Source: Escherichia coli
Lineage (GTDB): Bacteria; Pseudomonadota; Gammaproteobacteria; Enterobacterales; Enterobacteriaceae
Assembly (NCBI RefSeq): GCF_013122565.1
Contig: NZ_CP053258.1
DNA: 64,000 bases
Reading direction: 5' to 3' (one strand)
The position numbers and the translations under genes were made by a program. The notes under the pieces were generated by a model. The model did no database searches. It had not been told where the DNA came from and saw only the letters and a program-made list of their open reading frames with translations. Positions 54,791 to 55,992 of the stretch are shown here, piece by piece; position 1 is the stretch's first letter; every line of letters begins with the position of its first letter.

Positions 54791-55992
54791 TAACATATCT
54801 CCCTCAATATGGTTCTCGCTACACGCTTACATATATTTAAGTATAAAATATAAACATATAAACTAAAAACATTAAACACCAAAAAAAACAAAAAAAACAT
54901 ATACATATAAATTTAAAATCTTTTAAAGTGTAAGAAATCAGAATAAAAACCTGATCTTATAAAGATGGAAACTATAATATTCCAAATTAAAAAATAAAGG
55001 AGTAAATTAACAAACAAGCTAAACAAACCATCAAATTCCGCATAATACACAGCATGGAAATAGATATTGAATGAGCATGCCAATATTGGTATGCGAATGC
55101 TGGCGGTAGCAGTAAAAAAGAAAAATGGTGGGGCGGATGTAGCAGGAGAGCCATATAAAATGCAAATAAAAGACTACCAATATGATAATCAAGGAAAGAT
55201 CAGTAATGATTCCAAATATTCATATTCATATTCATATGCTGACATGATGTCGACTTCTCCTTTTTTCAACCCATTTTTGATACGAAAGCATTGTATTATT
55301 GGTGCTGAAATCTTATGCAGAGTTCAAACGCAAAACAGTTATATATTAAATCAGTTTCATAGCATGAGATTTAAAGACTGAAATTTGGATGTTTATGCTG
55401 TACAGTCGCTATCTAAAACTAGAGAGCATTTATGTGAAAATGAATATCATCTTCCTTAAGGTTTTACTATTACATTAAATGTTACGAGTTCACAAGTTTG
55501 CTCTCCTTTAATAAGAAAGATAGTGCTTTATTTTAACAAAAGATTCACCTCAGGCATCTTCATTATATTTGAGCCTATGGTAGAAAATTCAGTGAGCAGC
55601 ACGTATACAAGGTTATATCTTCACCGGATCATTGGCTGTAAGTGGTATCTTATTTTAGAGTCAGAAAAAAGACATTGGTACGATAAAGGGCTTTCTTATA
55701 AACATTGATACAATTTCACCTGCAAAAATTATTATGCTAAGTTTCATCGAACGCCTTGTCTCTCGTTCTTTCTCTTTTTTCAAAGACGGCAATCCTGTCT
55801 TACACAGAAGATTAAATCTTCATGACAAAAATACAAGTTATTTCAAGAGAGGTGCATATCAGAAAATAATGATTGAGAGTGATAGTTAAGCATATTTCAT
55901 CACTAAGGCGATGAATAATATCTGTGGAGATATTGTTAAATAGTTAACTTTTTAGCAATAATTATTGTTTCATATACTTTAAGGATAATGTT

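Follow-up and report, generated by a model that had tools for sequence, protein, structure and literature searches.

The interval considered here, positions 54791–55992 of the window (the whole 64-kb stretch of E. coli DNA that was analysed), lies within a horizontally acquired island at tRNA-Ser and, as the original prediction had placed it, directly upstream of a fimbrial operon. That chaperone-usher operon (55993–61190, plus strand) is intact as judged from its ORFs, Pfam and PGAP assignments and gene lengths that agree with those in relatives. It encodes the major subunit (fimA, 55993–56550, plus strand; Pfam FimA), a chaperone (56619–57329, plus strand; PapD_N/C), an usher (57354–59957, plus strand; PGAP of matching genomes, with PapC_N, Usher and PapC_C found on syntenic orthologs of ~861 aa) and a tip adhesin (60042–61190, plus strand; Pfam Fimbrial). 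An AraC-family gene, a ydeO paralog truncated by IS66, stands at the operon end. On the other side of the interval is an intact divergent regulator pair (52168–53521, minus strand), which Pfam, NCBIfam and tblastn assign to the same ancestral cassette and which is now separated from the fimbrial side by ~1 kb of IS remnant. The pair consists of a putatively membrane-anchored ToxR/CadC-like winged-helix protein of 290 aa (52649–53521, minus strand; Pfam Trans_reg_C; NCBIfam CadC, E 4e-10) and an overlapping 162-aa partner (52168–52656, minus strand) recognised by tblastn to the pair of a homologous locus, L004; over their full lengths the two share 42% and 36% identity, respectively, with that pair. 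The locus is a rare island, carried by 3 of 5426 complete E. coli genomes and found in baboon and human isolates, and when the interval was compared by blastn with E. coli genomes and plasmids, it matched three near-identical E. coli copies only, with no distant DNA relatives.

The first claim made for the interval, that it is very AT-rich with long A/T runs, was confirmed. Its GC content is 30.4% (A 38%, T 31%) versus 48.8% for the whole window, a value as low as this occurs in just 0.08% of 1202-bp windows across the 64 kb, and the lowest-GC 1.2-kb segment of all starts at 54801 (30.3%). Runs of A8 begin at 54881 and 54890, and A6 or T6 runs at 54989, 55114, 55261, 55665 and 55775. The neighbouring intact regulator genes are likewise low in GC (winged-helix gene 31%, partner 33%, ydeO paralog 34%), and in relatives the regulator genes have 34–39% GC versus 50% for the usher. 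Since AT-richness is common to the intact homologous genes in relatives, the low GC did not evolve as a property of a leader. The accompanying statement that the interval holds no convincing ORF stands in that no intact gene lies within 54791–55992 today, but it passes over a 104-codon ORF at 55067–55381 annotated by RefSeq/PGAP and a protein-coding ancestry that extends over 55160–55943.

The left boundary of the interval falls inside a mobile element. A decayed IS66-family element, of which the 3′ part (a tnpC remnant) occupies 54179–54830 on the plus strand, is annotated by PGAP in the three E. coli copies (L001–L003) and, as far as the terminal repeat, still matches intact copies of IS66 tnpC with 74% identity at the DNA level. 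The repeat at its right end finishes at 54830 (...GGTTCTCGCTACACGCTTAC), and in an alignment with another sequence, L013, similarity is lost right after ACGCTTAC, at the same position; IS66 ends begin GTAAGCG. The tnpC similarity and the terminal repeat (...ACGCTTAC) identify 54791–54830 as the right-hand end of such an element, and the start proposed for the leader was slightly off: the first 40 bp of the interval (3%) belong to the insertion sequence. Next to it lies an A-rich spacer (54831–55159), the most extreme part of the interval in composition (27% GC, 50% A on the plus strand), which contains both A8 runs and, in a tandem-repeat scan, low-complexity A-rich mini-repeats at 54842–54899. 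In tblastn none of the cassette proteins matched the spacer, and when it and the fimA-proximal DNA were aligned with the intergenic regions of relatives, the only matches were short, scattered and non-collinear. Judged by its syntenic position, the spacer probably represents the right half of the divergent intergenic region that once lay between the ToxR-like and EAL genes and was split by IS66.

The segment 55160–55672 (plus strand) is the remnant of a gene for an EAL-domain protein (c-di-GMP phosphodiesterase family), identified by tblastn, profile HMM, phmmer and alignment. It extends from the ancestral ATG, where its start MQIKD... aligns with MQKIKD... of C. sedlakii, to about residue 165 of ~259, keeps the GAEILCRV motif, and is without the DD, K, EGVE and QG motifs and the C-terminal ~95 residues. 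Identity is 37–38%; in a 4.6-kb search space tblastn gave 38% over 128 aa (E 1e-21), and the profile HMM matched positions 11–137 with 75.9 bits. A phmmer search of 1.84 billion proteins returned six intact matches, from E 9.3e-13 for the best (P0136) to 7.9e-6, all of them Pfam-EAL proteins of 245–258 aa, and no intact homologue closer than ~38% identity. The frame is interrupted by internal in-frame stops at 55379–55381 (TGA) and 55457–55459 (TAA), with homology continuing past both, and closes at a TAA (55706–55708) beyond recognisable homology. Both stops, together with the deletion described below, are common to the window and L001–L003; in a metagenome contig (L010) that ends at window position 55805, the deletion junction is present, the sequence is out of frame across the two stop positions, and an extra lineage-specific frameshift destroys the EIL motif. 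Homology, disabling lesions and synteny, all read from sequence, agree that 55160–55672 is a decayed EAL gene. A candidate C-terminal 'QGY' motif in another frame at 55605–55643 (E 0.78) was discarded: read in the EAL frame, this DNA gives a better alignment, to the IGVKF segment.

Substitutions in the EAL remnant number 4 nonsynonymous to 0–1 synonymous, counts far too small for a neutrality test, and its pN of 0.010, likewise drawn from few differences, is ~2–9 times that of the intact fimbrial and ToxR-like-pair genes (0.001–0.0055) and above every intact gene tested, including the ydeO paralog (0.0076). The direction of the substitution pattern fits relaxed constraint, on these small counts. 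The remnant also contains a perfect hexanucleotide repeat, (ATATTC)n, at 55216–55237, which a repeat scan and strain comparison found in three copies in the window, two in PapRG-06-5 and one each in A30, JNE23-001 and L010.

The first stop of the EAL remnant is also the end of an annotated gene in the interval, a 'hypothetical protein' (RefSeq/PGAP; 55067–55381, plus strand) called in three matching complete genomes, with 104 codons from a TTG start in the window and 100–102 aa in the three genomes. It is made up of upstream read-through followed by the first 73 codons of the EAL remnant, and its C-terminal part aligns with the N-terminus of EAL proteins in tblastn and by alignment. This ORF, or its part from 55160 to 55381, could be read as a real small gene for a truncated EAL-type protein kept for regulation. 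Such a reading would have a precedent in STM0551, an 11.4-kDa EAL-type protein that represses type 1 fimbriae in Salmonella and is reported to be active (PMC3487979), and would fit the annotation in three genomes, the ORF being open in four genomic copies (the window and L001–L003), the retained glutamate of the EIL motif, and a GGAG 11 nt upstream of the ATG at 55160. However, ~45 residues are left of an EAL domain of ~236 positions, without the metal-binding and catalytic motifs; homology in the same frame beyond the stop is the signature of a nonsense mutation; and the ORF is frameshifted in L010, with loss of the EIL motif. Changes in the ORF within the lineage are 2 nonsynonymous to 1 synonymous plus changes in repeat number, and the short form has no homologue among 5.8 billion clusters, other than E. 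coli-type copies, or among 1.84 billion proteins; the cluster to which the ORF's protein belongs counts 26 members. We consider a maintained small gene very improbable. As its makeup and alignment indicate, the annotated ORF represents the 5′ stub left by the dead EAL gene and no independent gene, and some residual function of the stub protein is conceivable by analogy with STM0551, given that the stub is open in the window and L001–L003.

A second regulator gene has left its end in the fimA-proximal part of the interval. The segment 55737–55943 (plus strand) is the C-terminal, helix-turn-helix (HTH) third of a ~195-aa REC-like/LuxR-type regulator gene, as indicated by tblastn (44–47% identity over 32 aa of the HTH, E 4e-7 in the 4.6-kb search space), a profile HMM (positions 111–195 of 203, 32.5 bits), alignment and strain comparison. 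The N-terminal ~127 codons of this gene are absent from the window. Its native stop is the TAG at 55941–55943, and the frame is broken before it by an internal in-frame TAA at 55887–55889, where A30 and JNE23-001 have GAA, the ancestral Glu; in other strains an A3/A4 indel at ~55783 shifts the frame. These two differences and the extra frameshift of L010 are lineage-specific lesions. On this homology and these lesions, 55737–55943 is taken to be a decayed REC-like/LuxR-type regulator gene. The 195-aa family, putatively of the LuxR/GerE type, has no direct match to Pfam or NCBIfam models; indirectly, hhalign relates it (98% probability, E 3e-13) to a 203-aa EAL-neighbour protein that bears a Pfam GerE match, and a Salmonella relative (P0135) carries PF00196. 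The best matches of an AF2 model of the 195-aa protein (pLDDT 64) were response regulators of the NarL/FixJ type, with E values no better than 2e-3, and the family profile gave insignificant matches only against PDB sequences. Between the two remnants, at 55673–55736, lies a deletion junction, located by comparing the matched profile positions with gene lengths in L004 and L006. The profile gap (EAL to ~165; LuxR-like from ~128–133) set against those lengths gives ~600–670 bp missing, corresponding to EAL residues ~168–259, a 13-bp gene gap and the first ~127 LuxR-type codons; the size and position are approximate because no relative exceeds ~38% identity.

Homologous fimbrial loci occur in Enterobacter hormaechei, Citrobacter sedlakii and metagenomes, and in these the space between the ToxR-like regulator pair and fimA is filled by an EAL gene (~255 aa; 259) and the REC-like/LuxR-type gene (~195 aa). 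In L004–L007, as in the window, the winged-helix pair forms the left flank and fimA-chaperone-usher-adhesin the right one; fimA relatives of 66–69% identity sit in loci with the EAL and 195-aa genes, and two further loci carry both genes (L011) or the LuxR-like gene (L008) upstream of fimA. Next to fimA, E. hormaechei and C. sedlakii have ~200 bp that are conserved at 85%, and this stretch is unrecognisable in the window. Translated searches and profile HMMs assign 720 of the 1202 bp (~60%; 55160–55672 plus 55737–55943) to the disrupted remnant of two genes, and because of this the interval does not belong to the class of non-coding leaders or 5′ UTRs. The original prediction of a dedicated non-coding leader had itself named a conserved protein-coding gene spanning the region in homologous loci as the finding that would count against it; two such genes fill the interval in L004–L008 and L011, and the prediction fails. 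Very probably the interval is a mosaic left behind as a regulatory cassette decayed, and not a designed leader, a reading that draws on the observed homology, lesions, synteny and IS boundary and makes it an ordinary case of genes decaying on a horizontally acquired island.

The ancestral order would have been the ToxR-like regulator and its partner (divergent), ~420 bp, an EAL-only phosphodiesterase, the REC-like/LuxR-type regulator, ~200 bp, and fimA-chaperone-usher-adhesin, an arrangement still intact in Enterobacter and Citrobacter relatives. In the order of events that we infer for E. coli, an IS66-family element would have inserted in the divergent intergenic region and later decayed, leaving its right end at 54830; nonsense mutations would then have disabled the EAL gene; and the ~600–670 bp deletion would have brought the middle of that gene up against the final third of the LuxR-type one. 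Since the extra lesions differ between strains, decay is presumably continuing. What remains could act only in cis and would have to carry the promoter now driving the intact fimbrial operon, and local c-di-GMP-linked control would have been lost. The promoter may be the best sigma-70-like match proximal to fimA (TTGTTA-18-AATAAT, 55933–55962, plus strand), a consensus match only, without differences among the four E. coli sequences, or transcription may start at the former EAL promoter, upstream of 55160, and read through. A second sigma-70-like match, again by consensus only, lies at 55705–55732. Promoter-like matches in 54500–56700 number 3 versus 8.9 ± 3.3 in shuffles, which is fewer and no enrichment.

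The composition of the interval raises the question of silencing. A dedicated H-NS-bound leader would use AT-rich DNA to nucleate H-NS and keep the operon silent until an anti-silencer acts, and the lowest GC in the window, in a horizontally acquired island at tRNA-Ser, with potential anti-silencers (the ToxR-like pair and the ydeO paralog) flanking the operon, is what such a leader might look like; fimbrial promoters are, moreover, commonly repressed by H-NS (review, PMC9820224). Against it, ~60% of the interval is ex-coding DNA from two genes and 3% is IS66, the intact homologous genes in relatives are AT-rich as well, and the H-NS nucleation motif TCGATAAATT is absent from the interval at up to 2 mismatches, with no enrichment in the window. 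A dedicated silencer is, on balance, quite unlikely. Under the decay model the interval is itself a likely H-NS target, since its 30% GC would be a legacy of the AT-rich regulator genes and intergenic DNA from which it derives, and any H-NS binding would plausibly be a consequence of that composition, compatible with decay.

Repeat-number variation in the EAL remnant might instead suggest a phase-variation device, whether an invertible promoter, a Pap-like Dam/Lrp switch or repeat slippage. The hexanucleotide repeat does differ between strains (3, 2 or 1 copies), as does the A3/A4 homopolymer, but the length of the repeat unit is divisible by three, and the repeat lies ~760 bp upstream of fimA, in a dead gene and off the promoter matches. 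Inverted and direct repeats of the interval are short imperfect pairs only, typical of AT-rich DNA; the best pair that brackets the interval (54795–54815 and 55913–55933) is 21 nt long and 71% complementary, with its left arm inside the IS66 end, and does not provide good flanking repeats for an invertible promoter. No recombinase gene is present among annotated features within 9 kb on each side in three genomes, and 5 of 5 sequences have the same orientation. GATC sites at 54953, 55198 and 55627 are spaced 245 and 429 bp apart, unlike the close pair of Pap, and papI/papB-like ORFs are absent. The suggested switch is, on this evidence, extremely improbable.

The last alternative is control by RNA: a small regulatory RNA, or a 5′ UTR with a structured element (a thermometer or riboswitch, for example), would suit a long gene-free stretch upstream of an adhesin operon, and the 5′ UTR of Yersinia psaE has been proposed to be an RNA thermometer (PMC9820224). 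However, Rfam with permissive filters gave no match at E <= 1 on either strand of 53500–56600, no terminator-like site was found within 54500–55992, the predicted fold of the 251 nt next to fimA is no better than that of shuffled sequence (z = -0.93), and protein-coding ancestry explains the sequence. A regulatory RNA here is scarcely probable at all.

In sum, the decay reading is mainly a correction: an apparent AT-rich regulatory leader is a gene graveyard, and a RefSeq 'hypothetical protein' is a pseudogene stub. AT-rich 'leaders' of acquired adhesin operons deserve translated comparison with syntenic loci before a silencer or switch is called. The rare E. coli island may serve as a natural variant without the c-di-GMP arm and with its structural genes intact, and the intact relatives reveal a recurrent cassette near diverse adhesin genes that appears uncharacterised, occurring beside chaperone-usher fimbriae, a trimeric autotransporter and an invasin-like gene. 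A bolder scenario, unlikely as a whole, is that the four-gene cassette (ToxR-like pair, EAL and REC-like/LuxR-type genes) is an undescribed adhesin regulatory module of which the E. coli locus is a rewired half-knockout, with the wreck still serving as an H-NS-targeted leader and the 73–104-aa stub acting as an STM0551-like regulator whose length is tuned by ATATTC copies.

The locus can be compared with several known systems. In its position just upstream of a major-subunit gene the interval resembles fimS-type switches (E. coli type 1, Proteus MR/P, CS18), but good flanking inverted repeats, an adjacent recombinase and orientation variants are all absent. With H-NS-silenced acquired fimbrial promoters (Rns/CfaD-dependent CS/CFA, pap, fimB/fimE) it shares low GC and a nearby AraC-family gene; unlike those promoters, its AT-rich DNA is mostly ex-genic, and the AraC gene is YdeO-like, not Rns-like, and truncated by IS66. 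In Klebsiella pneumoniae, MrkJ (type 3, with MrkH/MrkI) and FimK (type 1) place an EAL phosphodiesterase/regulator beside chaperone-usher operons and tune fimbriae, with different domain partners, namely the PilZ protein MrkH and an HTH fused within FimK; by comparison the window appears to be without a functional EAL copy. The fim region of Salmonella Typhimurium has stm0551 between fimY and fimW, and LuxR-type regulators FimZ, FimY and FimW. It would resemble the ancestral locus in placing EAL-type and small LuxR-type genes side by side in a chaperone-usher cluster, a pairing that lies directly upstream of fimA in the window's intact relatives. The likeness to stm0551/fimW would be one of gene pairing, the 195-aa family being without an NCBIfam or Pfam match; the genes are ordered and oriented differently with respect to fimA, and both genes are dead in the window. 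The intact pair at 52168–53521, outside the interval, shares the co-component layout of ToxR/ToxS, VtrA/VtrC, PsaE/PsaF and GrvA/FidL, with an N-terminal winged helix, a putative membrane span (a hydrophobic stretch in the translation) and an overlapping small partner. The partner protein of another locus, L017, gave a weak FidL_like match. PsaE/PsaF activate a chaperone-usher operon (PMC9820224; PMC8407435); unlike psaEFABC, the pair here is divergent and not co-directional with the fimbrial genes. ToxR-like co-component cassettes of this kind have been described as virulence regulators of enterics that evolve fast (PMC9214523).

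The interval at 54791-55992 was originally predicted to be a long non-coding leader of the fimbrial operon. Its strong AT-richness is evident, at 30.4% GC (A 38%, T 31%) compared with a window average of 48.8%; GC this low is reached in just 0.08% of 1202-bp windows, and the minimum for the whole window begins at 54801. The long A/T runs also held up: A8 occurs twice (54881 and 54890) and A6/T6 several times, and 54842-54899 contains A-rich mini-repeats. A decayed IS66-family element adjoins the interval on the left and the fimbrial major-subunit gene (fimA) starts at 55993 on the right. 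In homologous loci, conserved protein-coding genes fill the equivalent interval, the result named beforehand as refuting a dedicated non-coding leader. Relatives of the major subunit occur at 66–69% identity in Enterobacter hormaechei, Citrobacter sedlakii and metagenomes. Gene order in these relatives is a divergent pair (a Trans_reg_C winged-helix protein of ~285 aa and an overlapping 162-aa partner), 421–440 bp of intergenic DNA, a 259-aa EAL gene, 13 bp, a 195-aa gene, ~200 bp, and fimA-chaperone-usher-adhesin, with the same or a reduced arrangement in two metagenomic relatives. Since the EAL and 195-aa genes lie between the pair and fimA, coding genes span the equivalent interval. The corresponding pair in the window (52168-53521, minus strand, 31–33% GC) is intact, comprising a 290-aa ToxR/CadC-like transmembrane regulator and a 162-aa partner gene with an 8-nt overlap, and aligns end to end with the E. 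hormaechei pair (42% and 36% identity). A co-component sensor serving the fimbrial locus is the probable role of the pair, which ~1 kb of IS debris now separates from that locus.

Both missing genes have left remnants. Searching with relatives' proteins (tblastn) matched the EAL protein in a single frame at 55232-55603, with 38% identity over 128 residues and passage through two stop codons, and a small EAL profile HMM aligned over positions 11–137 of 259 (75.9 bits). An exhaustive search of 1.84 billion representative proteins with the conceptual translation returned its own stub and six intact proteins of 245–258 aa (E 9.3e-13 to 7.9e-6), with no homologue above 37% identity; all six are Pfam EAL, and those with a named source come from Enterobacter, Citrobacter and Obesumbacterium. 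The ancestral start is ATG 55160 (MQIKD..., compared with MQKIKD... in C. sedlakii), the GAEILCRV signature is retained, and similarity peters out past IGCKW (IGVKF in relatives) near 55672. The intact proteins score 99 bits on Pfam EAL and show EIL-R, E-R-N, DD, K-L-D, EGVE and QGY-F, the usual catalytic signatures of EAL domains. Relative to intact loci, about 600–670 bp are absent between the two remnants, and just the C-terminal third of the 195-aa gene is left (55737-55943; 44–47% identity in the recognition-helix region; profile positions 111–195, 32.5 bits). The 195-aa family comprises 13 clusters, none named, and no Pfam or NCBIfam model matched it. However, hhalign links it (98% probability, E 3e-13) to a 203-aa Obesumbacterium protein that adjoins an EAL gene and has a Pfam GerE match; a Salmonella relative has PF00196, and a fellow cluster member is named LuxR C-terminal-related. 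The top matches of an AlphaFold model (medium confidence, pLDDT 64) are NarL/FixJ-type response regulators, though weak. On the hhalign, PF00196 and AlphaFold evidence we name the 195-aa protein a putative REC-like plus LuxR-type regulator.

Some lesions are shared and others are lineage-specific. The in-frame stops of the EAL remnant (55379-55381 and 55457-55459) and the deletion are common to the window and three genomes, and are therefore older than their split. A metagenome contig ending at window position 55805 has the deletion junction, yet reads out of frame at the stop positions, and an additional frameshift in this contig destroys the EIL motif. The LuxR-like remnant carries an in-frame stop at 55887-55889, where strains A30 and JNE23-001 read GAA, the ancestral Glu, in place of TAA. 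Three strains are out of frame through an A3/A4 homopolymer difference, and a perfect ATATTC repeat (55216-55237) is present in 3, 2 or 1 copies among sequences otherwise 97–99% identical, which is slippage within a dead gene. The EAL remnant shows 4 nonsynonymous and 0–1 synonymous differences, counts too few for a test, and a pN of 0.010, compared with 0.001–0.0055 for the intact fimbrial and ToxR-like-pair genes and 0.0076 for the ydeO paralog; the direction fits loss of constraint, although the counts are small.

The statement that no convincing ORF is present needs qualifying, as RefSeq annotates a 104-codon hypothetical protein at 55067-55381 (WP_086211075.1 and relatives). This is a pseudogene stub, combining read-through from upstream with the first 73 codons of the EAL gene and closed by the nonsense codon. 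It would be a real small gene only in the form of an STM0551-like stub, but the homology extends beyond the stop, the motif is frameshifted in one copy, and a short form of this kind is found nowhere else. The annotation artefact spreads through a 26-member protein cluster.

At the left edge, 54791-54830 is an IS66-family element end (74% alignment with intact IS66 copies), the alignment running to ...ACGCTTAC at 54830 and diverging directly beyond. The adjacent 54831-55159 (27% GC, 50% A) resembles the relatives' loci neither at protein level nor in collinear DNA; from its position it is probably the right half of the former divergent intergenic region, which IS insertion would have split. 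At the right edge, the native stop of the LuxR-like remnant lies only 49 bp from the fimA ATG; the ~200-bp fimA-proximal region, 85% conserved between E. hormaechei and C. sedlakii, has no recognisable counterpart in the window. In Klebsiella aerogenes, a 1.2-kb stretch of 36% GC without a called gene (L012 6780-8000) precedes a fimA of 66% identity and may be another long leader or decayed regulators.

Of 5426 complete E. coli genomes, just 3 carry the interval (PapRG-06-5 and A30 from baboon, JNE23-001 from human; 97.4–99.4% identity), with no plasmid copies or more remote DNA relatives found. The metagenome contig, labelled 'uncultured Citrobacter', is 97.5% identical across 53601-55805. 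In PapRG-06-5 the fimbrial module is part of an integrative island that has a tRNA-Ser gene as its insertion site and ghrA and the csg curli locus as neighbours (island, window ~42600-64000; tRNA-Ser site, L009 42681-42768). Cargo of the island includes genes for CbtA/YeeU toxin-antitoxin, antirestriction, DUF932 and YeeP-like GTPase proteins, and several of these genes are frameshifted. A second ydeO copy (61578-62399; NCBIfam YdeO equivalog, 442 bits, residues 1–240 of 253) sits at the operon's 3' end; it is truncated and runs into another IS66 fragment, which leaves IS66 remnants on both sides of the module; E. hormaechei has an Hha-family gene in its place.

With its structural genes unbroken and of normal length, expression of the fimbrial operon may persist, and any contribution of the interval can be in cis only. 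The top promoter match, by consensus only, is TTGTTA-18-AATAAT (55933-55962), kept in 4 of 4 strains, with an AAGGA Shine-Dalgarno downstream of it; promoter-like consensus matches are not enriched in the region. Alternatively, transcription could begin upstream of 55160, from the former EAL promoter, and cross ~830 nt of remnants, with no terminator-like site between there and fimA. Within the operon, a GC-rich hairpin without a T-run in the fimA-chaperone gap (56583-56602, AAGGAGGG-CCCC-CCCTCCTT) might stabilise or attenuate the mRNA, like the stems seen after major-subunit genes. The chaperone gene has three different annotated starts in the three near-identical genomes (L001 11159-11725; L002 11043-11720; L003 11010-11720), the window ORF being 236 aa from 56619.

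That H-NS binds the interval is a reasonable expectation from its 30% GC and knowledge of fimbrial promoters (PMC9820224); one nucleation-motif test of the interval was negative. The AT-richness is largely inherited: relatives' intact regulator genes are 34–39% GC beside structural genes of 50% GC. The other suggested functions fare poorly. Against an invertible phase-variation switch, good inverted repeats are lacking, those present being short and imperfect, and one arm falls within the IS terminus; annotation out to 9 kb on each side shows no recombinase, and all 5 copies are collinear. A Pap-type switch was rejected on wrong GATC spacing, with no PapI/PapB-like ORFs found. For a small RNA or structured UTR there is no Rfam match or terminator-like site in the interval, and its fimA-proximal 251 nt show no excess folding.

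In sum, the interval is the product of ordinary IS insertion and gene decay within an acquired island. MrkJ and FimK serve as analogues for c-di-GMP-linked fimbrial control. By analogy with these and with STM0551 (PMC3487979), a local c-di-GMP-linked control layer should have gone with the EAL/LuxR-type pair. More interesting than the interval is a by-product, a four-gene cassette recurring in Enterobacterales beside several adhesin types: a small membrane partner and a ToxR/CadC-like winged-helix gene on one strand and, divergently, an EAL-only gene (~255 aa) and a ~195–215-aa REC-like/LuxR-type gene (L004 4644-7784; L006 4648-7801; L014 5195-8381; L016 4163-7434; L017 2429-7396). Its neighbours include chaperone-usher fimbriae, a YadA-like trimeric autotransporter and an invasin-like gene. 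Cassette members are unnamed or labelled just 'EAL domain-containing' or 'hypothetical', and the intact cassette beside differing adhesin types seems uncharacterised. The window's intact divergent pair resembles co-component regulators of the ToxR/ToxS, PsaE/PsaF and GrvA/FidL type (PMC9214523; PMC9820224). The remnants resemble, in kind, the EAL plus LuxR-type pairing of the Salmonella fim cluster and the Klebsiella mrk and fim loci.
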